From Candidatus Altiarchaeota archaeon (GTDB taxonomy: Archaea; Altiarchaeota; Altiarchaeia; IMC4; QMZM01), in NCBI GenBank assembly GCA_018897475.1, contig JAHIKS010000142.1:1-33020 (forward strand): a stretch of DNA of 33,020 nt. The letters are read 5' to 3'. Below, piece after piece: positions 2,825 through 33,020 of the stretch. Below the pieces are notes generated by a model. It saw only the letters and a list, made by a program, of their open reading frames with translations. It was not told the origin of the DNA and ran no database searches. Positions within the stretch are counted from its first letter, which is position 1. Each line of letters begins with the position of its first letter. A program made the translations under genes and the position numbers.

Positions 2825-4105
2825 TTAATGTTGCCATTTCTCAAGCGCTATTTTTAGTTCCTCATGATTTCTGGCGTATTCTCCCAAATCGATGCCATCA
2901 AGCACGCTTTCTACTGCTTGTCTTACTGCAATGGCTCCGGTTCGTGTTCCATGTGGATGTGCATGGATACCACCACCAAACTGCATGATAATATCCTTGC
3001 CAAGAATCCTTACTAAGTCTGGGACATGGCCTGGATGCAGTCCACCAGATGCTACAGGAAACACTGGGTTAATGCCGTGCCACTTCTGATGGAGGATGCA
3101 TGTTCTCTTGCTTTCCTCTACTTCCCGCAGAATGATTTCATCTTTTATGGAAACCACTTCTTCTATGCTTCCGTGCATCTTTCCCACAACTGTTCCAATG
3201 TGTAACTGGTCCAGTCCTATAAGCCTGACGAGTTTGGCAATAACCAGCATTGAGACACCATGTCTCGGGTTCCTCGTTAATGCTGAGTGCATGCACCGGT
3301 GTGCATGTAAAATAAGGTTCAATGATTCATTAGCCTCCCTCAAAGTCTGCAGAGCAGTCCAGCCCACAGGGATGATGTCTATCATAATGTATTCTCCACC
3401 AAGTTTCTTAATAAATTTCGCCCTCCGTAGCATCTCCTGGCAGGTTGGTGCTGTTATGTTGCACATGTACACCTTCTTTTCTCCGGTTTCTTTCTCTGCC
3501 TTATCTCTTGCCTCTAACGTTAATTTTGCTCTCTTCTCAAATTGGTTGAATTTCTGGTTGGTCAGATTTTCATCATCCTTCACTATGTCACAGCCACCAA
3601 TCCAAGCGTTATATGCGACCTCAGCGTGTTTTTCCGTTACTAAACCAACCTTTGGCTTCACTATTGTTCCGACCAACGGCCTGTCCCTGATTTTCAGCAG
3701 TTTCCTCACACCTTGTAAACCAAACTTCGGACCCTTAAACTGGCTTACAACTTCTTTTGGAAATGAAATATCCTGCAATCTCAGGTTGTTCAGCAATTTC
3801 ATGCTGAATATGTTTCCTGCAATACTGCTCAATATCTGGGGAATGCTTCCCACCTCAAATAGTTCAGAAGAGTATGCGATCTTGATTTCACCAGTTTTTT
3901 CGTTTATTTCGAAGACATGCGGCTTCAGTCTTTCAGCGATTTCCGGGCTCAAAGTCGAAATGTCAGACCACGTGTCGATAGATGATTCTCCAGCAATGTT
4001 CGTGCATGCCTTCTTAAAACTAACCCCTTTGCTCGGCTCAATATAGTATAAACACACTAATTCATCCTCGTTTGGCTCATATTCCAAATCAATGTATTCC
4101 AGCAT
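2825..4105 (-). CDS. rbcL: ribulose-1,5-bisphosphate carboxylase/oxygenase large subunit, archaeal form III-like
   Basis: 426 aa with RuBisCO active-site motifs: GGCDIVKDDENL (carbamylated Lys plus Asp/Glu metal ligands), LHAHRCMHSA, ASGGLHPG, GGGIHAHPHG and N-domain GESSIDTW / GNIFSMK. No small subunit gene is adjacent. Confidence 0.88.
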   Translation of the reverse strand: MLEYIDLEYEPNEDELVCLYYIEPSKGVSFKKACTNIAGESSIDTWSDISTLSPEIAERLKPHVFEINEKTGEIKIAYSSELFEVGSIPQILSSIAGNIFSMKLLNNLRLQDISFPKEVVSQFKGPKFGLQGVRKLLKIRDRPLVGTIVKPKVGLVTEKHAEVAYNAWIGGCDIVKDDENLTNQKFNQFEKRAKLTLEARDKAEKETGEKKVYMCNITAPTCQEMLRRAKFIKKLGGEYIMIDIIPVGWTALQTLREANESLNLILHAHRCMHSALTRNPRHGVSMLVIAKLVRLIGLDQLHIGTVVGKMHGSIEEVVSIKDEIILREVEESKRTCILHQKWHGINPVFPVASGGLHPGHVPDLVRILGKDIIMQFGGGIHAHPHGTRTGAIAVRQAVESVLDGIDLGEYARNHEELKIALEKWQH

Positions 4106-4106
4106 T

Positions 4107-4880
4107 TTAACCTCCTTTCTCAGACAGGTTCTCCCATATTAAATCGAATAGGTCTTCTTGGAATTTGGCGTATCTGCCTCCGAGCATGATTCCTGTGTCA
4201 TTGCCTTCCAGTTCAGTGTCGTCTGGTACAGGTTCAAATAATAAAACCTGTTTTCTGTCGAAAGACATCATCCTCACATTTATCTTGTCTCCATCCAGGT
4301 GTCGCACATCCATGTACTTCCTGAACTCTTGTATATACTCGCTTGTAAGTTTCGTGATTGGAACTATCAGCCTTATCCTAACACCTCTTTCATGGGATTT
4401 CTTGCATAACTCTCTGTGCGTCTTCCAGAGACGTATTGCACCGTTTTCTGTCTTTATGATGTAGATATGTTTTTTCGCTGATTGCATCATACGCTCGAGT
4501 TCAGTGTACACATTTCCTCGTCCCTCAACAGACCAAATCAATTCTGTTGGTTTCGGGTATTTCCCCCCGCTATCCTCTAACTTATGTATTAACTTGCTCT
4601 CTGTTGTCTGTAGCTCGTCTGTTTTGTGTTTTACAAATTTTTTTATTGCTTGCTTTGGCTTTGTTGATTTGTAGAATACAGGCCTTCCGGGTTTTTCCAA
4701 GACAAACCCTTTTCTCTCCAGATTATCGAGTACAGAATATATTTTTGGTGTTGGGATGTTGCTGTACTTGGCGACTTGTTTTGCATTCAACATCCCCCAC
4801 TTAACCAGCGAGAAATAGGCCGCAGCTTCGTACGAGTTTAATCCAATCTTCTTGAAGTACTCTACAGTTTCACTGTCCAT
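4107..4880 (-). CDS. TrmB-family transcriptional regulator (N-terminal winged helix plus C-terminal TrmB-like domain)
   Basis: 257 aa. The N-terminus, FKKIGLNSYEAAAYFSLVKWGMLNAKQVAKYSNIPTPKIYSVLDNLERKGFV, is the typical TrmB/MarR-like wHTH. The stop lies 1 nt before the rbcL ATG, and a GGAGGT for rbcL sits inside its 3' end. Confidence 0.75.
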   Translation of the reverse strand: MDSETVEYFKKIGLNSYEAAAYFSLVKWGMLNAKQVAKYSNIPTPKIYSVLDNLERKGFVLEKPGRPVFYKSTKPKQAIKKFVKHKTDELQTTESKLIHKLEDSGGKYPKPTELIWSVEGRGNVYTELERMMQSAKKHIYIIKTENGAIRLWKTHRELCKKSHERGVRIRLIVPITKLTSEYIQEFRKYMDVRHLDGDKINVRMMSFDRKQVLLFEPVPDDTELEGNDTGIMLGGRYAKFQEDLFDLIWENLSEKGG

Positions 4881-4909
4881 GATTATTTATACAGCTAATC
4901 ATATAAATA

Positions 4910-4930
4910 TTAACTACTAGTAGTAGTTAA
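4910..4930. promoter_or_regulatory. perfect 10-1-10 palindrome TTAACTACTA-G-TAGTAGTTAA with a TACT-N3-AGTA core; candidate TrmB-family operator in a divergent promoter
   Basis: Read directly from the sequence. It lies between the trmB-like start (4880, minus) and the 4951/5096 plus-strand starts. TATA-like A/T boxes flank it at about 4895-4912. Confidence 0.55.
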
Positions 4931-4950
4931 AAAATGGTGAGGGTGTTGAA

Positions 4951-5094
4951 ATGGCAAATAATATGGTAGAGGAAATATTGCAAGAACATCTCGTTGAAGG
5001 AGAATATGGAGAAGGTAAAGAGATAGGGGGTATTCCAAGGCCTTGGGATGATATACTCCATATGATGTCTGATAAGCCCGAGGAGGTGAAATAA
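4951..5094 (+). pseudogene. 47-codon micro-ORF resembling the N-terminus of an aconitase/IPM-isomerase large subunit; probable gene relic or upstream coupled micro-ORF
   Basis: My own translation is MANNMVEEILQEHLVEGEYGEGKEIGGIPRPWDDILHMMSDKPEEVK*. The EEIL.EHLVEGE...G.EI pattern matches the start of aconitase-family proteins. The stop is 1 nt before the icd ATG, and a GGAGGTG SD for icd sits inside its 3' end. Confidence 0.35.
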
Positions 5095-5095
5095 A

Positions 5096-6298
5096 ATGAC
5101 GGAAAATAATGAGGCGATTGAAAAAGCAAAGGAACATTTTGGAGAAATTGTTAAGGAACAACTTGAGCGTGTTGAAGTTATGAAGTCTTGGCAAGATTGG
5201 ATAGATTATAAAGAATTGGACCCGATTATAATCGGTGTTGTGGGTGGTGATGGTATCGGACCTATGATCTGTGAGCATGCAAAAAATGTACTTGAATTCT
5301 TACTTAAAGATGAGGTGGAAAAGGGGAGGATAGAATTCAGGGTGATAGAGGGTTTAACCATAGAGAACCGTGCTAAGGTAGTAAAGGCGATCCCTGATGA
5401 TGTTCTTGAAGAAATAAAGAAATGTCATGTAATACTCAAGGGACCGACCACCACTCCTAAAACAGGAGATCCTTGGCCGAATATTGAGAGTGCTAATGTA
5501 TCAATGAGACGTGAACTTGATTTATTTGCTTGCGTGCGTCCTGTGAAAGTGCCTGAAAAAGGCATAGATTGGATGTTTTTCAGAGAGAACACAGAAGGGG
5601 CTTATGTTCTTGGAAGCAAAGGTGTTGATGTTACCGATGATCTAGCAATTGATTTCAAGGTGATCACGACCCAGGGCTCTGATAGGATTATTCGCCTTGC
5701 TTTTGATTATGCAAAGAAAAACAACATAAACCGGGTTACTGTCGTGACTAAAGCAAATGTTGTTAAAACAACAGACGGTAAATTCCTTCAAGTTGCTGAA
5801 AAAGTGGCAAAAGATTACCCTGAGGTTGAATGGGATGACTGGTTCATTGATATTATGGCCGCTAAACTTATTGATCCTGCAAGAGCAAGTCAATTCAGGG
5901 TGGTTGTAATGCCAAACCTTTATGGCGATATTCTAACGGACGAAGCAGCTCAGATACAGGGCGGTGTTGGAACAGCCGGAAGTGCAAACATTGGAAAACG
6001 CTACGCCATGTTTGAGGCTATCCACGGCACTGCGCCTAGAATGGTCGAGGAAGGAAGATCTCAGTACGCTGATCCCTCGAGTATGATCAAGTGTGGAGCC
6101 ATGCTTTTGAACCATATAGGTTACAATGAGGAATCCAAGAGGTTGGATATGGCACTTGAAATATGCAGCCAGTACGAGCGCAAAATCAAACTAACTGGAA
6201 GATCAGATGGAGCGACCGGGGAGGAATACGCTCAATATATTATGGATAGAGTGAAAGACCCAGATCTGGAAAATAAATGGCAAAAATATCAAGAGTAG
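5096..6298 (+). CDS. icd: isocitrate dehydrogenase (beta-decarboxylating dehydrogenase family; ICDH-like substrate motif)
   Basis: 400 aa with GGDGIGP, KGPTTTP, IESANVSMRRELDLFACVRP (the S-x-N pattern of ICDH rather than IPMDH), NLYGDILTDEAAQ and HGTAP. Confidence 0.8.
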   Translation: MTENNEAIEKAKEHFGEIVKEQLERVEVMKSWQDWIDYKELDPIIIGVVGGDGIGPMICEHAKNVLEFLLKDEVEKGRIEFRVIEGLTIENRAKVVKAIPDDVLEEIKKCHVILKGPTTTPKTGDPWPNIESANVSMRRELDLFACVRPVKVPEKGIDWMFFRENTEGAYVLGSKGVDVTDDLAIDFKVITTQGSDRIIRLAFDYAKKNNINRVTVVTKANVVKTTDGKFLQVAEKVAKDYPEVEWDDWFIDIMAAKLIDPARASQFRVVVMPNLYGDILTDEAAQIQGGVGTAGSANIGKRYAMFEAIHGTAPRMVEEGRSQYADPSSMIKCGAMLLNHIGYNEESKRLDMALEICSQYERKIKLTGRSDGATGEEYAQYIMDRVKDPDLENKWQKYQE

Positions 6299-10620: not shown

Positions 10621-11744
10621 GTTACAATCTCCTGAACCCGTTCCTCATCAACTGCCTTCTTGAGCTCCATTGCAATTCTCTCCCCGACTGAAATCCCCCT
10701 TCCATGGAGATACTCGGAGTAGGGAGTAAACTTTGTTCCGGGGGAGCCCTGGACCCTGAGGCTTATGTCAAAGACTACTGCAATTTCCTTCGGCGGCCCC
10801 GGAGTAAAGGTGGCCTGCAGGGCAAAGGGACCTATGATGCCCGGGGCGTATTCCTTCTTCGAGACCTTCACAAACTTCTCCCCCAGCTCGAAAATCTGCT
10901 CCAGCAAAGACTCCTTGACAGTGCATGCTATATGTCCAGACTCGACGGTCTTCATATCTATATACTTCATGACCTCAAGCTGCTGCTTCGCCGGAAGCCT
11001 GAGAATCCCGTCCAGGTTGGTCTGCCTTCTCGTGTCTGTGCCCAGCAATTCAAGCCTGTCATCCAGGGGGGAGTAAAAGTAGTTGAAATTTACCTGTGCC
11101 CCGACGACGAATTCCTCTACGACTGCCTTCTTCAGGGCGTCCTCCGTTATGGTCCCTGCAGCAAGCAGTTCATCAGACTTGTTCTGGTACTCTTCAGGGC
11201 TCGAGGCAAAGAAGAACGCCCTCTCATAGGTCCTGTGAGCCTCACTTACCTTGACAAGAACGAGCCTGTCAATATCATCGGGCTTCTTATAAACCCTGGG
11301 GAAGGGAATTCCCGCCTTCTCCATGAGATAGTACTGATTCCTGGGGGCGTCCCTCTCCTCAGCCCTTAGCATTGCCCTTGAGCCAAATAACGGCAGGAGG
11401 AATTCATTCTCAATCTTATCAAAGCCCACATAGACCTCAAAGGAGCGGTGGGGAAGAAAGATGGTATTCCTCTTTTGCAATTCTGTAAGGATTTTATTAT
11501 CTGTAACGTTTGCGAATTTTTCGAGTATTATTGTCTCATCAACCACTCCCAGTCCATCACCGCTCTTATAATACCGTTCATAGGTCTTCTCCCTGCCCTT
11601 CTGGCAGACGACGATATTCCTAAAACCGTGCTCCTTCGCCCCCCTGCATATGTCAAGAGCGGAATGCGAGCCCAGCGCCCCGACTGTGATGTCTTTCAGA
11701 TTATACTTATTCAAGAGCCCGCCTATATCCTCTTGGGAAATCAT
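10617..11744 (-). CDS. PurP paralog (FAICAR synthetase family), start trimmed to the ATG at 11744
   Basis: MISQEDIGGLLNKYNLKDITVGALGSHSALDI... is collinear with the downstream PurP. The 29-codon N-terminal extension in the ORF track has no counterpart in the paralog. Its stop overlaps the downstream ATG (ATGA). Confidence 0.8.
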   Translation of the reverse strand: MISQEDIGGLLNKYNLKDITVGALGSHSALDICRGAKEHGFRNIVVCQKGREKTYERYYKSGDGLGVVDETIILEKFANVTDNKILTELQKRNTIFLPHRSFEVYVGFDKIENEFLLPLFGSRAMLRAEERDAPRNQYYLMEKAGIPFPRVYKKPDDIDRLVLVKVSEAHRTYERAFFFASSPEEYQNKSDELLAAGTITEDALKKAVVEEFVVGAQVNFNYFYSPLDDRLELLGTDTRRQTNLDGILRLPAKQQLEVMKYIDMKTVESGHIACTVKESLLEQIFELGEKFVKVSKKEYAPGIIGPFALQATFTPGPPKEIAVVFDISLRVQGSPGTKFTPYSEYLHGRGISVGERIAMELKKAVDEERVQEIVT

Positions 11745-11849
11745 TTTCGATGATGAAAAGCCACACACTGAGCGGTATGGATTATAAAGATAATGGGACT
11801 GATGCATATATAATGAGAAAATTAGATCCAAGAATAAAAATCCTTGGAT

Positions 11850-12070
11850 ATTCTGAATTGCGGTTCTACTAATAAATATTTAGGTGAGTTACCCACTCGC
11901 TAAAGCGTTTGGGCTTCCTGCTTCCTTGACGAGACATGCCCCATCCATTGGATGGGGTAGGGGTATCATCTCTACAGGCGTTAGTTCGGGTCGCACCGAC
12001 CCTACCTCTTTGAGAGCCTTATTCAGTATGTTTATCGCAGCATTGTGGTCTCTGTCCATTACCAAGCCAC
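11850..12070 (-). ncRNA. predicted TnpB omega-RNA (reRNA) scaffold overlapping the 3' end of tnpB; boundaries approximate
   Basis: In IS200/IS605 elements the guide RNA is encoded at the tnpB 3' end and right end. Here that region holds nested stems: 11939-11957 (8-bp stem), 11988-12002 (6-bp stem) and 11956-11962 paired with 12000-12006. It encodes the archaeal TnpB C-terminal signature ..TPVE....VKEAGSP. Confidence 0.35.
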
Positions 12071-13106
12071 AAGCAGGACAGCGGTGAGTTCTAACCCAAA
12101 CCTGCTTATAGACGCGGTTGCCGCATCTGCTGCAATTTTGTGTTGTGTTTTTTGGATATACCTTCACAAGCACCCTACCAGCACCTTCCGCCTTGTAGGA
12201 CAGCATTTGAATGAAGGTTGACCATGAAGAGTCTGCCGTGTTCTTGGCGTTGTAAGAAGATTCCATCATCTTTCTTACTGTTAGATCCTCTACACCTATG
12301 ATATCATGGCTATTTACATAGTAGTGTGATAGTTTATGCAGAAAGTCCCTTCGTTTGTCAGTTATTCTTTCGTGGATTCTTGTAAGTTTGAGCATCTGCT
12401 TCACTCGGTTCCTTGAATCTTTATTTTTTCTTGATAGCTTTCTTTGCTCTCTCTTGAGTTTCTCTTCAAGTTTCAGGAGAATGTGAGGATGTTCTATTCT
12501 TTCCCCATTACTATCTGTCAAATAGTTATCTATGTTCAGGTCCAATCCAATAGCTTTGCCCGTAGTGCCTAACTTTTTTGGTTTAGTTTCTACAGAAAGA
12601 ATAGCAAACCACTTTCCAGAAGGCGTTCTTTTCACAAAAACCTGTTTTATCTTCCCTTCAACCTTCCTATGGGCTCTGATGGGTATCTCACCTATCTTGG
12701 ATAACCAGAGTTTCTGATACCGATTTCCATTATCAATGAGCTTGAAACCACTCTGGTTGTATACGAACGTTTTGAATCTACCCTGCTTCTTGAATCTAAC
12801 CCTTCCAACTTTTCTACCGTTCTTCTTCAGTTTACTAAGTGCCTTTAGGTTGCTATAGAGTTGAAAAAGAACATATTGTCTTGTCTTGGAATGAATATTA
12901 GCATAGTAAGGATTCTCCCTTGCCAACTCTGGGAGCTCGGCTTGCAAATTATAGCGGGACGGAATTTTATCTTTACCTTCCCACTCCCCTAAAAAGTAGT
13001 TGTAGAGACATCTACAACTCTCTAAGGTTTCCAGCAACTTCATTTCCTGAGCCCTGCTTGGATAGAGCCTGAATCGATAGTTTCTATTTACCTTTAATGG
13101 CACCAT
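11889..13106 (-). CDS. tnpB: TnpB (IS200/IS605 OrfB, RuvC-like RNA-guided nuclease), apparently intact
   Basis: Starts MVPLKVNRNYRFRLYPSRAQ. The RuvC triad candidates are IGLDLN, IGVEDL and DRDHNAAINI, with zinc ribbon CSRCGN...CPACG. The start is trimmed from the TTG at 13136 to the ATG at 13106. Confidence 0.9.
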   Translation of the reverse strand: MVPLKVNRNYRFRLYPSRAQEMKLLETLESCRCLYNYFLGEWEGKDKIPSRYNLQAELPELARENPYYANIHSKTRQYVLFQLYSNLKALSKLKKNGRKVGRVRFKKQGRFKTFVYNQSGFKLIDNGNRYQKLWLSKIGEIPIRAHRKVEGKIKQVFVKRTPSGKWFAILSVETKPKKLGTTGKAIGLDLNIDNYLTDSNGERIEHPHILLKLEEKLKREQRKLSRKNKDSRNRVKQMLKLTRIHERITDKRRDFLHKLSHYYVNSHDIIGVEDLTVRKMMESSYNAKNTADSSWSTFIQMLSYKAEGAGRVLVKVYPKNTTQNCSRCGNRVYKQVWVRTHRCPACGLVMDRDHNAAINILNKALKEVGSVRPELTPVEMIPLPHPMDGACLVKEAGSPNALASG

Positions 13107-13111
13107 TGTTG

Positions 13112-13321
13112 TTACCCCTTTGTTGTAGAATACCAAAATGCTTGTGCGAGAGCACCGGAAAAGTGATTATGCTCCTCCGTAGCGCCTAACTTTTTGTAGT
13201 GCCTCTCCTCCATTTCAGGCATCAAACAGGATTCAAGATATTCCTGTTCGTACCTATCCAGTTCCTTCTCAGACGGATGATGTCTGAGATAGTTTCCTTC
13301 CAGTTCAGCTTTTGCATCCAT
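13112..13321 (-). CDS. small hypothetical protein (69 aa) coupled to tnpB
   Basis: A strong SD is present (GGAGGTAAAAAA-ATG). The stop is 5 nt before the tnpB ATG. The protein is helical and charged, and I recognise no family. Confidence 0.45.
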   Translation of the reverse strand: MDAKAELEGNYLRHHPSEKELDRYEQEYLESCLMPEMEERHYKKLGATEEHNHFSGALAQAFWYSTTKG

Positions 13322-13374
13322 TTTTTACCTCCAGAGCAAAGACCACACTAGCCCACACACAAAACAACCAATTA

Positions 13375-13604
13375 GGGTTTTGCCCTATTTAATTTCAAAG
13401 CGGGCGTTCCTGCAAAAGAAAATAACAGGTTCTCGGCCTTGGACATTGAAGGCGAGACACTTATAGGGGTGGATGTGGCTGACTTTCAGTCAGACACACA
13501 CCCGAGCCAAAGGCTCGGTTGTGAGCCCCATAAGGTCTCGCCAAACCGAGAACAGAAACAAATTTTCCTGACATTGGAACGCCCGCAAAATACGGGCAAA
13601 ACCC
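13375..13604. other. 230-nt rod-like nested inverted-repeat element (candidate structured ncRNA, or MITE/PATE-like DNA hairpin)
   Basis: Complementary pairs: 13375-85/13594-604 (11 bp), 13400-10/13576-86 (11 bp), 13429-36/13546-53 (8 bp), and 13451-69/13526-42 (17 bp with two bulged A). Apical hairpins lie at 13479-93 and 13502-18. Confidence 0.6.
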
Positions 13605-13843
13605 GCGTGTCAAATATTTTTTATAAAAGAAAAATTCACTACGAGAATCCTACATTTATCTAAATCCTTGCATAAATTAACTATTTCTGACTTAGGGGAT
13701 ATTCCCGACCTGAACGAGATCAAGGAGAAGGCAATACGCGGGAGGGAGATTCTCTACGAGAGAATTTAACCGATAAATTTTGTAATCGCTATAATATATA
13801 ATTGATTCTCACATTATCTAATAAACAGAAAAAAGGATTAAAA

Positions 13844-15970
13844 ATGTCAGCGAAATGGGCTTTATTGGCGGTTTTCTTGATATTAGTCTCAACAACCCCA
13901 GTGGCTGAGGAAGAGCAGGGAATCATACTGGAATGGGAGCGTCAGTTTCCCTCCAGAATTACAGCCATCATAGCGGATGACTGGGACAACGACAGCTCGA
14001 CCGAGATTATTGTAGCTGCTTCAAGGAGCATCTATATCCTGGATTCTGAAGGGGAGCTGGAGAAGGAATATACTATCGATTCGGACGGAGAAATCTATGC
14101 GCTGGCTGTCGGAAGCATAGACAACAGGACTGGGAATGAAATTCTAGCCGGCACTGGATTTACGTTGAGGGAGCGCTCCAACGATACATGGTTTGAATTC
14201 ACAGGGACAGAAGCAACTGAAAAGACGGAGTACCTCTATGAAACGATAAGGAATAAGGGGGAACTGTACGTCATAAGTGACGATGAGATTAGTGAGCTGA
14301 AGGACATGGGTGAGTGGATAAGAACAATCCATATCTCAAATCTGGACAACAACGGAACGGATGAGATAATAGTCGGAACCGGAGGGGCCAATACCGACTG
14401 GATGATGGAATATGGTGATTGGATTGAAACAATCTGCAGTTACAAAGACCGCCCCGGTTTTGATACCCTCATCTATAACTGCAGTGATATACTTCATAAT
14501 GCAAGCTGGCATCGTGTTTCCTATGAGATGAACAACGGCTCCGTTTACGTTTTGATAGAAAACGGGAGCGTTCTTGGGAACTACGTCTTTGATGATGTGG
14601 TGTGGGGTTTAAGCACATCCGACCTCTTTCATGACCAGGACGAGGAAATAGTGGTTGGCTCAGGCGATAATGTATATGCACTGGACAAAGACCTGGGACT
14701 CCTCTGGAGTTACCCTCGTGATGGCACCGTCAAAAAGATAGAGATATCTGACATCGACAGGAACGGAAATGAAGAGATTATTGCCGAATTCAGGGCAACA
14801 AACGTTAATGGAATAGCAGTCATCGAGAGAGAAGGCGAGGACATCTGGGAGTACAGGCTCAAGGGTGACGTAGTCCGGGACTTCTCCATCAGGAACATTG
14901 ACCTGGACGAGGAGGAGGAGGTGCTGGTTGCCTCATCCAATAGCGTATATGTCGTGGATAAAGACGGTAGACTCAAGAGGGAATTCTGGATATTCGAGGG
15001 CATTGACAACATTCTATCCACGGATATGGACAACAACGGCTATCAGGAGATTATACTCACGTCGGAGGACACCGTTTATAGCTATGAGATATCGGAGAGA
15101 CTCATAATAGGGCATAATGCCACCATCCATTACTCGCTTGCAGAAAAAAACTATGGCCTGGAGAATTACCAGAAGGCAATGGAATTTACTGAGATAGCAA
15201 AGGGGCTATATTCTGAAATCAATGACCCTACAGGGATATCAAAGTGCGATTCATTGCTTGAGAAAATACAGGAAGGCATAAACAGAAACAAGGAGATAGA
15301 AGCGCGGTCCCTCTACAACCAGGCAATGATGAAGTATCTTATGAATGACTATCTCAACGCAAAAGTGCTCGCAGAAAGAGCCAGATGGCTCTACGTCGAG
15401 ATTAACCATCCCGAGGGAATCGAAACGTGCAGCTCCCTGATAGACGACATAAACCGGGAGGGGCATCTGGAGAACGTCACCGTGGAGAATATAACCTCAA
15501 CCACGAGTACAATCACTAACATTACGACCATCTCCCCAACCACACTCCTTGTGACGATTGTACCCATCGATGAGGATGAAACACCGAATCCAATCACGGA
15601 TTTCTTTATGAAAAACCAGAAAAGAGCACCCTACGCTATAGGAGTAGGTGTCGTCATGCTCATAACATTCCTCATCATCAGGAACAGGTACTTCAAAAAG
15701 AAGGAGGAGATGAAGGCCCGTATCGGAGAGGGAAAGCCAATTGAAGAGAAAGCAAAACCTGAAGAGAAACCCGCCGAAGAGAAGCCAGCCGAGGAAGCGA
15801 AACCTGAGCCAGAGAAGAAAGAGGAACCAAAGCCAGCCGAGCAGGAGAAGCCAGAAGCAGAGGAAGAGCCGGCCGAAGGGGAGGAGCTGGAGCTGCCCGA
15901 AACGCCGGAGCTGGCCAAGGAGCTTGACGAGATAGACAAGGAATTCCAGGAGAAATACGGGAAGGAATAA
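13844..15970 (+). CDS. secreted/membrane-anchored 7-blade FG-GAP-like beta-propeller protein with helical TPR-like repeats, a C-terminal TM helix and a Pro/Glu/Lys-repeat cytoplasmic tail
   Basis: Signal-like N-terminus MSAKWALLAVFLILVSTTPVA. Seven D-x-D/N-x-D/N-G-x-x-E-I-I/V-V repeats. Two repeats of the ...Y.EINDP.GI..C..L type. Thr/Ser linker, TM helix APYAIGVGVVMLITFLII, then a [14 protein letters not shown]... tail. Many N-x-S/T sequons. The start is trimmed from the TTG at 13802 to the ATG at 13844. Confidence 0.7.
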   Translation: MSAKWALLAVFLILVSTTPVAEEEQGIILEWERQFPSRITAIIADDWDNDSSTEIIVAASRSIYILDSEGELEKEYTIDSDGEIYALAVGSIDNRTGNEILAGTGFTLRERSNDTWFEFTGTEATEKTEYLYETIRNKGELYVISDDEISELKDMGEWIRTIHISNLDNNGTDEIIVGTGGANTDWMMEYGDWIETICSYKDRPGFDTLIYNCSDILHNASWHRVSYEMNNGSVYVLIENGSVLGNYVFDDVVWGLSTSDLFHDQDEEIVVGSGDNVYALDKDLGLLWSYPRDGTVKKIEISDIDRNGNEEIIAEFRATNVNGIAVIEREGEDIWEYRLKGDVVRDFSIRNIDLDEEEEVLVASSNSVYVVDKDGRLKREFWIFEGIDNILSTDMDNNGYQEIILTSEDTVYSYEISERLIIGHNATIHYSLAEKNYGLENYQKAMEFTEIAKGLYSEINDPTGISKCDSLLEKIQEGINRNKEIEARSLYNQAMMKYLMNDYLNAKVLAERARWLYVEINHPEGIETCSSLIDDINREGHLENVTVENITSTTSTITNITTISPTTLLVTIVPIDEDETPNPITDFFMKNQKRAPYAIGVGVVMLITFLIIRNRYFKKKEEMKARIGEGKPIEEKAKPEEKPAEEKPAEEAKPEPEKKEEPKPAEQEKPEAEEEPAEGEELELPETPELAKELDEIDKEFQEKYGKE

Positions 15971-15971
15971 T

Positions 15972-16448
15972 CTAGATTATCTTTATGAAGAAATCAAATG
16001 TTTCGACACCAGTCAATGACACTATCGTTACAATAATCCCCGCAATCAGAACGCCGATAATATCTGCTATTATGAATTTCTTATAGTCCAGGCCGATCAG
16101 GTGGGCTGCCAGTGCCCCGGAGTATACTCCCGAGCCAGGCAATGGAATCCCTATGAAGATTGCAACCCCCAGATAACCGTATTTCTTCACATACATGTCA
16201 ATCCTTTTCTGGGTTCTCCTGACATACCTCCTGTACAGGTTATCGATAAATCCTATCCTGGTGAATATCCTTATTATCGTATCTATCAGGGGATATAACA
16301 CTGCGCCCAGAATTATGTTTGTAACCACACAAACAAGGAATACCAGGGCCCAGTTCAGGTTGGCTTTAAGGATACCATATGGTATGGAAGCCCTCAGTTC
16401 CAGGAAGGGCAAAAAGGTAATCCATACAATATTGAGGATTTCATCCAT
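15972..16448 (-). CDS. small integral membrane protein (COG2426-like 'small multidrug export' family)
   Basis: 158 aa with 4-5 predicted TM helices and the N-terminal motif FLPFLELRASIPYG. Confidence 0.6.
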   Translation of the reverse strand: MDEILNIVWITFLPFLELRASIPYGILKANLNWALVFLVCVVTNIILGAVLYPLIDTIIRIFTRIGFIDNLYRRYVRRTQKRIDMYVKKYGYLGVAIFIGIPLPGSGVYSGALAAHLIGLDYKKFIIADIIGVLIAGIIVTIVSLTGVETFDFFIKII

Positions 16449-16488
16449 ATTCCTTAATATTTATTTCTCGAATACACAATAATATACT

Positions 16489-16998
16489 ATGGTATCTAAA
16501 GTAAGCCTTAATCCAGTACTAGTTGATGTTCTTACTATGAGTATGAGTAACGACCATGTGGAGATTATGAAGAAGCTTTCCAAACCCAAGCACGACGAGG
16601 ATATTGCTGGGGAGCTTGGGATAAAGGCGACCATAGTAAGGACTCTACTCAATGACCTCCATGCCAAGGGTCTGGTTGAATACGACCGCATGAAGAACAA
16701 GAAAACTGGCTGGTACACCTACCTCTGGATGAAGAGGGAGGATAAGGTTGATGAGTACCTGGATGGATATCTCCAGGAGACCCTCGAGGAGTTGAACGGC
16801 CAGCTGGAATCCGAAAAGGACACGGCCTTCTTCGGATGCTCCTGCAGCAAGGTCGCGATGGGGAGGGCAATGGAGCTCAACTTCATGTGCCCTGAATGCA
16901 ATGGAGCGCTCACGGAGTTCAATAATACCAAAACCGTACGACAACTAAACGGTCAAATTGCAAAAATCAACAGAATTCTCAAGAAGAAGAAAAAATAA
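16489..16998 (+). CDS. tfe: transcription factor E alpha (TFIIE-alpha homolog)
   Basis: Winged-helix N-terminus (..DIAGELGIKATIVRTLLNDLHAKGLVEY..KKTGWYTYLW) plus a zinc ribbon (CSC...CPECNG). Confidence 0.8.
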   Translation: MVSKVSLNPVLVDVLTMSMSNDHVEIMKKLSKPKHDEDIAGELGIKATIVRTLLNDLHAKGLVEYDRMKNKKTGWYTYLWMKREDKVDEYLDGYLQETLEELNGQLESEKDTAFFGCSCSKVAMGRAMELNFMCPECNGALTEFNNTKTVRQLNGQIAKINRILKKKKK

Positions 16999-17488
16999 GG
17001 CGCTACTCTTTCTGAAGGAACTATGTGCTGAGGATATAGTCAATCACTCATTGGCTGTTTCAAAAAAGGCGAGGGAAATCGCCGACAGAATCAAAGCAAA
17101 CGGACATGATATAGACCCCGATTTTGTTGAGATTGGCGCAATCCTCCACGACATCGGCCGCTCAAAGAGCCATGGTATAGACCACGGAATCAAGGGCTCT
17201 GAAATCTTGAGGAATTCAGAATTCTCAGAATTTGCGAGAATATGTGAAGTCCATCTGGGTGCCGGAATAGATAAGGAAGAGGCAGCTTCCCTCGGACTAC
17301 CCGCGAGAGACTACCTCCTCGAAACCCTCGAGGAAAAGGTAATTGCGCATGCGGACAACCTCACCGCCGATAAAGAGTATGTCCCCATCTCGGAAACAAT
17401 CAAAAAGATGGAGAAGAAACTCGGCAAAGGGCATCCCGCCATCAGGTGGATAAAGGAGCTGAACGACTTCATCAACTCCCTCTCATAA
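16958..17488 (+). CDS. HD-domain (HDIG-type) phosphohydrolase
   Basis: Contains HSLAVSKKAREIA...ILHDIGRSKSHGIDHG...EVHLGAG...IAHADNL. The only in-frame start candidate is the TTG at 16958, which overlaps the tfe 3' end by 41 nt. Confidence 0.7.
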   Translation: MQKSTEFSRRRKNKALLFLKELCAEDIVNHSLAVSKKAREIADRIKANGHDIDPDFVEIGAILHDIGRSKSHGIDHGIKGSEILRNSEFSEFARICEVHLGAGIDKEEAASLGLPARDYLLETLEEKVIAHADNLTADKEYVPISETIKKMEKKLGKGHPAIRWIKELNDFINSLS

Positions 17489-32807: not shown

Positions 32808-32860
32808 TTTCTTAACTCCTTAATCCTATCTTCATGTGTTTGTTGTTAGCCAACAGTTAA

Positions 32861-33020
32861 TTATGCAAGGAATTGGTTAATACTAGACTTTGACGGTTTA
32901 TATGCTGGTGTTACAGGGTTATCACTTTCATGATTTCTGCTGGTGTCTGCTGCTGGATTGCTAGTTTGTGTACTAGCATTACAAGCGACTCCAGCAACTG
33001 GCGGGCAACGTACCTGCATC
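32861..33020 (-). CDS. 3' end of an unidentified ORF running off the right edge of the window
   Basis: My own translation is ..MQVRCPPVAGVACNASTQTSNPAADTSRNHESDNPVTPAYKPSKSSINQFLA*. The frame is open to the window edge. No family is recognised, and it may be non-coding. Confidence 0.25.
   Translation of the reverse strand, partial: MQVRCPPVAGVACNASTQTSNPAADTSRNHESDNPVTPAYKPSKSSINQFLA

Follow-up and report, generated by a model that had tools for sequence, protein, structure and literature searches.

Cas12 descends from TnpB elements, which also serve as compact genome editors. To our knowledge, the RNA biology described for these elements comprises the 3' guide RNA plus, in IStrons, a group I intron. 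Elements of the IS200/IS605 type move as single-stranded DNA, and the hairpins bound by their transposases are about 20–40 nt in length. The leader hairpins known from IS200 tnpA and from IS10/IS50 are also short and either hide the ribosome-binding site or act through antisense pairing. Searching the literature for Altiarchaeota together with TnpB, TnpB leaders and left ends revealed no precedent for the element described below.

This element lies in a 33,020-nt stretch of DNA from a Candidatus Altiarchaeota archaeon, referred to here as the window, and carries a long nested inverted repeat, the rod, ahead of a small ORF and tnpB. Its features are as follows, where numbers preceded by L denote other loci.

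11877..13680, minus strand: the whole mobile unit, 1.8 kb; 76% identical over 1820 nt to positions 3691–5433 of L087.
13605..13680, minus strand: left-end region before the rod, holding the TATA-like box CTTTTATAAAAA at about 13612–13628; 76% identical to L087.
13375..13604, listed on the minus strand (the element's sense strand, though either strand may be the functional one): the rod in its long type-A form, defined by fold, conservation, covariance model and compensatory changes.
13375–13385/13594–13604: helix P1, perfect reverse complements.
13400–13410/13576–13586: helix P2, perfect reverse complements.
13429–13436/13546–13553: helix P3, perfect reverse complements.
13451–13469/13526–13542: helices P4-P5, paired except for two bulged A's.
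13473..13522, minus strand: optional 50-nt apex insertion containing the small hairpins 13479–13493 and 13502–13518.
13322..13374, minus strand: linker from rod to small ORF, G/U-rich on the sense strand, with the Shine-Dalgarno sequence GGAGGT at 13327–13332; 86% identical to L087.
13112..13321, minus strand: small ORF of 69 aa, a deletion derivative of a 103-aa form.
13107..13207, minus strand: conserved spacer before the nuclease start codon, including CACTTTTCCGGTGCTCTC at about 13150–13175; here read as the C-terminus of the small ORF.
11889..13106, minus strand: tnpB, 405 aa from ATG, with Pfam domain matches.
11877..12039, minus strand: conserved 3' end of tnpB and right end (...GGGTAACTCAC), with blocks near-identical in L087 and L001.

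Several described systems share a part of this design. As in the transposase mRNA leaders of IS200 tnpA and IS10/IS50, a folded segment occupies the left end of every copy between the element's own putative promoter and its first ORF, where it would presumably restrain the expression of a potentially harmful gene. The rod is, however, 180–230 nt long, ends 42 nt before the Shine-Dalgarno sequence, contains large conserved asymmetric loops and is the most conserved part of its element. The hairpins bound by the Y1 transposase TnpA of IS200/IS605 elements are likewise imperfect palindromes near the left end, and the Watson-Crick stems of the rod could fold in single-stranded DNA, but the rod is about ten times longer and lies at least 75 nt inside the boundary, other copies carry a separate short hairpin and tnpA is absent. 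The omega RNA of IscB/IsrB (HEARO, RF02033) is also a structured non-coding element upstream of an RNA-guided nuclease gene; unlike it, the rod has neither a match to the model nor a guide segment at the boundary, TnpB keeps its 3' guide region and a LAGLIDADG gene can take the place of tnpB. IS110 bridge RNA is likewise a structured non-coding left end of about 180 nt upstream of an ORF and with large internal loops, but the genes downstream of the rod encode TnpB, TnpB-like or LAGLIDADG proteins and not the DEDD recombinase of IS110. The loops of the rod are invariant among copies, and a comparison of 9-mers with the rest of the element gave complementarity at chance level. IStrons combine a group I intron with an IS605-type tnpB and thus also have a large structured 5' part unrelated to the guide RNA, whereas the rod is simple, lacks a catalytic core and matched none of the group I intron or ribozyme models of Rfam, and its element is intergenic. 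By analogy only, ssoA-type origins and integron attC sites are long imperfect palindromes with conserved unpaired bases and variable stems beside exchangeable modules, but neither a rolling-circle Rep nor an integron integrase is found near the rod, R-box-like ends are absent and its size differs from that of attC.

On the minus strand the order of the element is TATA-like box, rod, Shine-Dalgarno sequence, small ORF, tnpB and right end. Upstream of the rod on this strand, at a distance of 15 nt, stands a TTTATAAAAA box; read on the plus strand, this box is the T6 run (13617–13622) past the rod. An earlier reading of the window made from its letters alone (the sequence-only reading) had described this context, and the 69-aa ORF, the downstream tnpB on the minus strand, the A/T box and the T6 run were all confirmed. 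The tnpB product matched OrfB_IS605 (2e-26), Cas12f1-like TNB (2.5e-24) and HTH_OrfB_IS605 (1.5e-09) in Pfam, and an exact-protein look-up with both start choices returned no record. No Y1 transposase gene (tnpA) occurs within the element. As for its ends, comparison with the flanks of other copies, which the same reading had proposed for locating the left end, gave homology between loci from window position 13680 to 11877, rod included. This homology overrode a contig break in L081, 18 nt into tnpB, that had been considered as a repeat boundary. The L087 element sits at an unrelated site, between genes for DUF92 and DUF6513, and in L101 and L103, at two further sites, homology begins at about window position 13685. 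The left boundary lies about 75 nt beyond the start of the rod. All copies terminate on the right in GGGTRRYTCAC, and L087, L103 and L082 carry a separate short hairpin, GTGTTTGTTGTTARCCAACAC, at their outer left ends. The order of TATA-like box, rod and SD-ATG holds in the window, L082, L085, L087, L092, L101 and L103, the box being weak in L085 and in L089. The distance from the box to the first helix is 15 nt in the window, L082, L087 and L092, with a degenerate box in L085 and L089, and GGAGGTAAAAAATG in the linker between rod and small ORF is kept in both rod types.

The four nested pairs and two apex hairpins noted previously were all present at the positions listed above, and the outer 11-nt arms were also recovered independently by a repeat search. 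The minimum free energy of the rod was −109.8 kcal/mol on the plus strand (z = −9.50) and −117.2 kcal/mol on the minus strand (z = −9.24), and its fold energy was matched by 0 of 200 dinucleotide-preserving shuffles. In a scan of 1312 overlapping windows the rod was the most stable 230-nt segment of the 33 kb (−105.8 compared to a mean of −52.6, sd 11.3), where it occurs once. The covariance model R1 gave this copy 195 bits. The main stems are essentially free of G:U pairs, as had been remarked, and this holds in the diverged relatives as well (105 Watson-Crick pairs vs 1 G:U in 107 cells). The loops include the motif AUGUCAGGAAAAG and the apex UUCC, and are A-rich when read on the plus strand. 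At gathering thresholds Rfam gave no match at the rod in the window; at E ≤ 10 over 11700–13900 it returned nothing relevant, only chance-level miRNA- and snoRNA-like matches, and the type-B copies described below had no relevant match either. Models for SRP RNA, RNase P RNA, tRNA and C/D sRNA found no match in the rod, and ARAGORN placed no tRNA or tmRNA in it. This agrees with the earlier exclusion of SRP and RNase P RNA. An archaeal bulge-helix-bulge was rejected, as the predicted bulges near the base of the rod, of 2/6 nt and 0/3 nt on either side of a 5-bp helix, do not have its geometry. Coding was rejected as well: an ORF from a conserved AUG crosses the short type-A rod, but in type B it ends after 5 codons, and in the long form it is also cut short.

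All related copies that were found come from assemblies and metagenomes of Candidatus Altiarchaeota. The 50-nt apex insertion is carried by window/L081 and L085 and is precisely missing from the UUCC loop in L082, L086/87/88 and L101–104, which have the 180-nt form. L085 and L087 are identical over the first 126 nt of the small ORF yet differ in the insertion. Type-B rods (L089 and L092) have the same architecture with different stem sequences, and retain P1, P2, P4, P5 and the apex loop GGGGCUUCCGCCCC. Six copies of the short type-A rod share 99% identity. Between the window and L087, identity reaches 95–97% in the rod arms, 76% and 86% in the flanks, 90% in the small ORF and 67–82% in tnpB; the rod is the best-conserved part of the element. 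Variable sites in the small ORF are distributed 8/7/23 over the three codon positions, and this drift at third positions indicates that the copies are not simply young. Comparing types A and B1, 11 of 37 pairs differ, and these comprise 10 double compensatory changes, one one-sided change from C-G to U-G and no broken pair. Paired states were observed in 106 of 107 pair cells, compared to 27–52% when the partner was shifted by 1–3 positions as a control. Within type A, L102 has a compensated change from G-C to U-A for which L101 represents the mismatched intermediate. The covariation check suggested by the sequence-only reading turned up compensatory changes between rod types, and its view of a folded element was borne out. 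The fold is under selection and is no palindrome arisen by chance. The rod is a hairpin of 180–230 nt under strong constraint that preserves its structure, and it forms a fixed internal part of a left-end leader module. The loops are near-invariant, which suggests sequence-specific recognition by a putative partner.

Rods were present in 5 of 6 small-ORF element classes. All of those found by DNA pattern (3 contigs in a metagenome scan) and by protein anchor adjoin the small ORF at the same relative position, and no solo rods were recovered from the limited sample of genomes. The rod belongs with the small ORF and TnpB as a unit. Neither rod nor small ORF was found beside 80 other TnpB loci using blastn, nhmmer, tblastn and the covariance model R1, and L001, the closest TnpB element outside the group, has a short left end without a rod. 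In viral contigs, two DNA patterns and a small-ORF profile gave chance matches only, and single-arm pattern matches in L083 and L084 were dismissed as chance. As a structured element the rod is specific to its lineage, and the insertion-element family that carries it is restricted to Candidatus Altiarchaeota. The small ORF itself is conserved mainly in its first ~40 codons, and the long form of 103 aa carries an extra segment of ~225 nt. Its protein, which is acidic, fell into 27 clusters whose named members are all Ca. Altiarchaeota/Altiarchaeales, and into 6 representative clusters among 1.84 billion. Pfam and NCBIfam assigned the small protein to no family, and the AlphaFold model of the 103-aa form had a pLDDT of 59.8, too low for use.

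Genes of several TnpB subfamilies, of a divergent TnpB-like protein and of a LAGLIDADG endonuclease follow the module of promoter, rod and small ORF in different copies. The same type-A rod stands before TnpB-405, TnpB-380/401, TnpB-424 and LAGLIDADG, and L101 (type A) and L092 (type B) have tnpB genes that are 84.5% identical despite their different rod types. Rod type thus follows neither nuclease type nor tnpB subfamily. The LAGLIDADG locus has kept its rod equally well; there, homology to the TnpB elements ends before the nuclease gene, and a match to the right end was not found. The spacer at 13107..13207 is conserved before every nuclease type, LAGLIDADG and TnpB-like included. The leader module is joined to different nuclease genes by recombination.

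Transcription of the rod, its strand and its ends are predicted here from sequence motifs. With the TATA-to-start spacing that is usual in archaea, transcription would begin within the 5' arm of P1 in type A and within an extra 5' hairpin in type B, leaving the first helix incomplete in the RNA. The ribosome-binding site lies 42 nt downstream and is not sequestered by the rod, so the simplest model of translational occlusion does not apply. Fold energies and G:U counts favour the sense strand in type A, which folds ~7 kcal/mol better on it, and the antisense strand in type B, which folds better on that one. The weak helices P1b and P2b depend on G:U pairs that are possible only on the sense strand. 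Almost every pair is Watson-Crick, meaning that both strands can fold. An alternative pairing between the G/U-rich linker and the 3' arm of P1 was set aside, with p of about 0.02 in two types and 0.23 in a third and no type specificity. Long-range pairing of the rod motif CCGGAAAAG with CACTTTTCCGG in the spacer was rejected: complementary 9-mers occur at chance number and the window copy has no compensating change. Complementarity of rod 9-mers to the rest of the element was at chance level only.

Of the explanations considered, an upstream guide RNA, a MITE and a housekeeping RNA find no support. The sequence-only reading had raised an upstream guide for TnpB, and a guide or tracr-like RNA in the IscB/HEARO arrangement would suit a structured element upstream of an RNA-guided nuclease gene inside a transposon. 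L087 moreover has array-like repeats of its right-end terminus, from which it follows that unusual guide arrangements do occur in this family. However, conservation is unusually high over the right end and the final ~160 nt of tnpB, even in comparison with L001, whose TnpB is 70% identical and belongs to another lineage, and 11877–12039 is the position expected for the canonical TnpB guide (omega) RNA scaffold. The 3' guide position is thus held by a conserved block separate from the upstream rod. No variable guide segment adjoins the rod, since it lies ~75 nt inside the boundary, after a conserved promoter-like box shared between copies. The lack of a HEARO or other Rfam match, the partnership with LAGLIDADG, the uncoupling of rod type from tnpB subfamily, the rodless L001 and the absence of rods from all 80 other TnpB loci searched point the same way. 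The rod is not the nuclease's guide RNA, and an IscB/HEARO-like role is very improbable. A MITE/PATE-like palindrome nested in the leader, also proposed earlier, or a recent chance palindrome would account for the perfect 11-nt terminal inverted repeats and the overall palindromic layout, but is just as hard to credit. Solo copies are missing, with 3 of 3 rods from the metagenome scan and all protein-anchored ones at the same place by the small ORF; the window holds a single copy; the module's flanks have diverged by 14–24% and the rod has not; and the two rod types have evolved by compensation. A housekeeping ncRNA gene, one form of the independent ncRNA gene suggested before, is likewise not supported, as the rod moves with the element into unrelated genomic sites and has no Rfam match.

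The reading that we favour, at a probability of roughly 40%, is that the rod heads the element's transcript as a folded 5' leader acting in cis. The element's own promoter would transcribe the rod as the folded leader of an mRNA for small ORF and nuclease, and the rod would act in cis whichever nuclease follows. It could set transcript stability or translation, possibly as a binding platform for a protein, for example the small ORF product, and would give TnpB no guide. In its favour are the rod's membership of the element, its constraint, its conserved structure and its independence of the nuclease, together with the TATA-like box at a fixed 15 nt before the first helix, the conserved SD-ATG after the rod, the sense-only G:U pairs in P1b and P2b and the better sense-strand fold of type A. 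Against it, almost pure Watson-Crick stems are unusual for constraint on RNA only, type B folds better as antisense, the predicted start cuts into the first helix, the Shine-Dalgarno sequence is not occluded, and the near-invariance of the loops is suggestive of a sequence-specific partner. The pairing also keeps in contention, as a possible if doubtful account, a DNA-level cis-element, a single-stranded hairpin or cruciform that a trans-acting transposase, recombinase or replication factor, or else the product of the small ORF, would recognise in order to move or recombine the element or to control its promoter. Both strands could fold, conservation exceeds that of the coding sequences with loops included, as expected for the site of a shared trans-acting protein, and 75 nt separate the rod from the left boundary of an element of the IS200/IS605 type. 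Rod type is independent of nuclease type, and in types A and B alike transcription is predicted to start in a region that the first helix overlaps. The left-end single-stranded hairpin of the sequence-only reading thus survives in part through the near-absence of G:U pairs, but the rod is not the usual short transposase-binding hairpin, one of which, GTGTTTGTTGTTARCCAACAC, sits further out in L087, L103 and L082. The element also has no Y1 transposase gene, the closest TnpB element has a short, rodless left end, and the rod is equally kept at the LAGLIDADG locus where the right-end match was not found. A stand-alone trans-acting small RNA from either strand, cargo such as a decoy or regulator, is unlikely. 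One option is a plus-strand RNA ending at the T6 run past the rod, and A/T-rich boxes on both sides, loops that are A-rich on that strand, the greater antisense stability of type-B rods and conservation of nearly every nucleotide, which resembles a functional RNA with many contacts, would agree with it. The antisense TATA-like box is, however, merely the complement of SD-A6-ATG and is lost in L103 (GGAGGTAAAGGAGATG) with the rod intact, a sense-strand oligo-T terminator after the rod is absent in type B, and target complementarity within the element is not above chance. A more speculative proposal, which we consider a long shot, is that rod and small acidic protein form a portable, nuclease-agnostic control or mobility module, in which internal loops of an RNA or ssDNA scaffold would be read by a dedicated partner that licenses expression, recombination or homing of the nuclease gene plugged in behind. 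In concept such a module would resemble bridge RNAs or attC sites more than it would a passive leader hairpin.

The rod constitutes a second structured element at the opposite end of the transposon from the guide RNA, and one that is more conserved than the guide-RNA region itself. Even the conservative reading yields a new covarying RNA/DNA motif family, with two types and length variants, for motif libraries, and clearly exemplifies the shuffling of modules at the left ends of transposons. That the rod is common to TnpB, TnpB-like and LAGLIDADG homing endonuclease genes points to a layer of control or mobility that has gone unrecognised among the selfish nucleases of this uncultivated phylum of archaea.

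The inverted repeats proposed from the sequence alone as a 230-nt rod at window positions 13375-13604 pair as described: three of the four segment pairs are exactly reverse-complementary, two bulged A's are the only exceptions in the fourth, and both apex hairpins fold. The rod and its surroundings (251 nt) reached -109.8 kcal/mol on the plus strand (z = -9.50) and -117.2 kcal/mol on the minus strand (z = -9.24), with no shuffle as low on either. It was also the most stable of 1312 overlapping 230-nt windows across the 33 kb (-105.8 versus an average of -52.6, sd 11.3). Such a fold lies well outside what chance would give. The failure to match it to SRP RNA, RNase P RNA, tRNA or C/D or H/ACA sRNAs was borne out, as no Rfam model matched at gathering or permissive thresholds; a tRNA/tmRNA scan found none at the rod. 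A bulge-helix-bulge motif was absent from the predicted structures, a group I core was absent with no match from the Rfam models, and no conserved ORF runs through the rod.

Layout of the element in the window
Upstream of the rod, spaced by 15 nt, minus strand: TATA-like box CTTTTATAAAAA
13604..13375, minus strand: rod
Between rod and small ORF, minus strand: G/U-rich linker of 53 nt ending in GGAGGTAAAAAATG
13321..13112, minus strand: small ORF, 69 aa
13106..11889, minus strand: tnpB, starting 5 nt past the small-ORF stop, with OrfB_IS605, Cas12f1-like TNB and HTH_OrfB_IS605 domains

The element has two purP-like genes as neighbours on one side and, on the other, a gene for an FG-GAP/beta-propeller surface protein. 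Its right end, ...GGGTA(A/G)CTCAC, lies 6 nt beyond the tnpB stop, and in the right-end comparison GGGTRRYTCAC terminates every copy. Between this end and the likely true purP start, at 11747-11803 on the plus strand, a weak match to the C/D-box sRNA model sR5 of Rfam was observed (17.8 bits, E 0.38 when 2.2 kb was searched) with boxes C (AUGAUGA), D' (CUGA) and D (CUGA).

Scanning of metagenome contigs with a DNA pattern made of the two outer rod stems turned up the rod in three more contigs (L082, L085 and L086), and exact and homologous small-ORF look-ups recovered many more loci. In one of these, L087, positions 3691-5433 align to window 13680..11877 with 76% identity over 1820 nt at an unrelated genomic site, flanked by DUF92 and DUF6513 genes. 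The same left boundary marks the onset of the match in loci L101, beside RNase HII, and L103, beside an HTH_5 gene. That copies at unrelated sites share boundaries indicates that the rod is, as judged by alignment, an internal part of a 1.8-kb mobile unit, beginning about 75 nt inside the left boundary. Farther out at the left end, L087, L103 and L082 carry one or two copies of a short imperfect hairpin, GTGTTTGTTGTTARCCAACAC, which is absent from the window copy at 13680. A solo left-end-like fragment at window 32826-32880, GTGTTTGTTGTTAGCCAACAGTTAATTATGCAAGGAATTGG, matches this outer hairpin together with the initial ~20 nt of the element in the same three loci; it may be left over from another copy or mark a preferred target. 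Right past the right end of L087 (5421-5500, the same in L088), the element's final 10 nt reappear three times, with 16 nt beginning AATAA after each copy (GGGTAGCTCAC-AATAAATACCCGTCTA-GGTAGCTCAC-AATAAGTCACCGTCCT-GGTAGCTCAG-AATAAAGCACTGTCCT). The arrangement resembles a small repeat-spacer array at the TnpB guide position, or could represent scars of repeated insertion.

The short-form rods (180 nt, six distinct) are 99% identical, and the window and L085 have this rod too, enlarged precisely at the apex loop by a 50-nt insertion that holds two hairpins. Over its initial 126 nt the small ORF is identical in L085 and L087, yet the apex insertion differs between them.

Identity of the window element to L087 by segment
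Left end to rod: 76%
Rod arms: 95-97%
Linker: 86%
Small ORF, first 38 codons: 90%
Spacer before the nuclease start codon: 86%
tnpB: 67-82%
Last 150 nt of tnpB plus right end: 85%

Variable sites in the small ORF number 8, 7 and 23 at codon positions 1, 2 and 3, and it is a genuine coding sequence. From this skew it follows that neutral sites have drifted among the copies, whereas the rod has not, even in its loops. The rod is an island under purifying selection and is better conserved than the TnpB guide-RNA region.

Upstream of more diverged small ORFs (loci L089-091 and L092-097) blastn returned no rod; folding revealed one of the same architecture, termed type B, the window kind being type A. 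A covariance model trained on type A only scored L089 at 32.9 bits (E about 1e-5). Kept across types are the 5'-arm motif AUGUC(A/C)GGAAAAGUU, the apex hairpin CUUA(U/A)GGGGCUUCCGCCCC(UA/GU)UAAGUG, the U-rich loop of the 3' arm and the SD-ATG; stems P1, P2, P3 and P4 differ in sequence, and P3 is entirely replaced, still forming a 9-11-bp helix. Helices P1, P2, P4 and P5 were aligned manually by structure across types A, B1 and B2 (37 pairs, 107 cells). Paired cells amounted to 106 of 107, falling to 27-52% on sliding the 3' partner by 1-3 positions, and 12 of the 37 pairs showed a compensatory double change somewhere among the three. Eleven pairs differ between A and B1, ten by double changes and one from C-G to U-G, with none broken. 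Within type A, L102 carries GUGGC/GCCAC versus GGGGC/GCCCC in the others, with L101 as a one-sided intermediate. Between the types it is structure that is conserved. Type B additionally has a branch hairpin on the 3' arm and a perfect 10-bp hairpin between TATA-like box and rod (arms TTGAGGGGGA...TCCCCCTCAA, just past the box in L089/L092). A 9-bp hairpin, CTGGAAACC...GGTTTCCAG, was seen just upstream of the box in L092 (3620-3650 region).

Rod types and the nuclease genes behind them
Type A, window: TnpB, 405 aa
Type A, L087/L088: TnpB, 380/401 aa
Type A, L101/L102: TnpB, 424 aa
Type A, L103-105: LAGLIDADG protein, 381 aa
Type B, L092: TnpB, 420 aa
Type B, L089/L091: TnpB-like, 477 aa (SSO2105_N; weak NCBIfam TnpB matches)

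Rod type and nuclease are uncoupled, tnpB being 84.5% identical between L101 (type A) and L092 (type B). Homology between modules ends at the start codon of the nuclease gene or shortly ahead of it, in L103 right after the spacer hairpin. At that junction tnpB is replaced by a LAGLIDADG/intein-like endonuclease gene in L103 (3257-4402) and by the divergent TnpB-like gene in L089 (1399-2832) and L098 (1115-2566), which implies that modules have been exchanged frequently behind a conserved leader. L098-100 have the small ORF and TnpB-like gene behind another upstream region without a rod, perhaps because this variant is truncated at its 5' end. The 69-aa ORF derives from a 103-aa form (cf. L092 4001-4312) by deletion of ~225 nt, and the C-terminus of its protein is former intergenic spacer. 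For the C-terminal half of the 103-aa form, a distant relative at 42% identity occurs in L108, within an unrelated cluster of small genes that includes RadC. The spacer motif GAGCATAATCACTTTTCCGGTGCTC (window 13150-13175, minus strand) is kept ahead of every nuclease type in related loci. It can fold into a 5-bp stem with a loop that complements the conserved rod motif GGAAAAG, a match at chance level alone and with no compensating change in the window copy.

The small-ORF family comprises 27 clusters at 90% identity, several carrying one assembly's locus-tag prefix; all of those with a source name are Candidatus Altiarchaeota or Altiarchaeales. A HMMER search covering all 1.84 billion representatives gave six small-ORF proteins. 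Rod and small ORF were absent from 80 loci encoding relatives of the window TnpB in other archaea and bacteria, including the closest (L001, TnpB 70% identity), whose upstream region folds unremarkably (z = -1.65). L081, a second assembly of the same organism (GCA_018896055.1, JAHINN010000045.1), is 100% identical to window 17061..13088 and breaks there, 18 nt into tnpB; this fits tnpB being a repeated part of the genome, with long-form rod and small ORF unique enough to assemble through.

The earlier suggestion of an upstream TnpB guide RNA lost support. Blocks near-identical in the window, L087 and L001 occupy the last ~160 nt of tnpB and the right end, the usual guide-RNA position; no variable segment adjoins the rod, which is also independent of nuclease type, making a guide function very improbable. 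The suggested MITE fares as poorly, with no solo rods in a small genome sample. Instead, we propose at roughly 40% probability that the small ORF-nuclease transcript begins with the rod, folded as a cis-acting 5' leader. Promoter-like box, rod and SD-ATG keep a fixed order and spacing, the rod does not depend on the nuclease, type A folds better on the sense strand, and the weaker helices P1b and P2b contain sense-only G:U pairs. However, the main stems are nearly all Watson-Crick, for type B the antisense strand gives the better fold, the rod leaves the ribosome-binding site free, and the usual archaeal TATA-to-start spacing, if assumed, would place the start inside the first helix.

The Watson-Crick bias would suit a DNA-level element, with a trans-acting protein recognising a cruciform or single-stranded hairpin, as would the invariant loops and left-end location. 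We regard this as possible though doubtful, given the size of the rod, the separate canonical-looking left-end hairpin, and the fact that the rod is kept in the LAGLIDADG locus, which ceases to be homologous to the TnpB elements ahead of its nuclease gene and yielded no right-end match. A stand-alone RNA is unlikely.

Structured cis elements in transposon left-end leaders are already known, and no description of an element such as this one was found in the literature. New are its size, extreme constraint, two covarying types, lineage-specific small-protein partner and use ahead of unrelated nucleases. The rod might, although we hold this to be unlikely, belong to a new class of portable modules for control or mobility.
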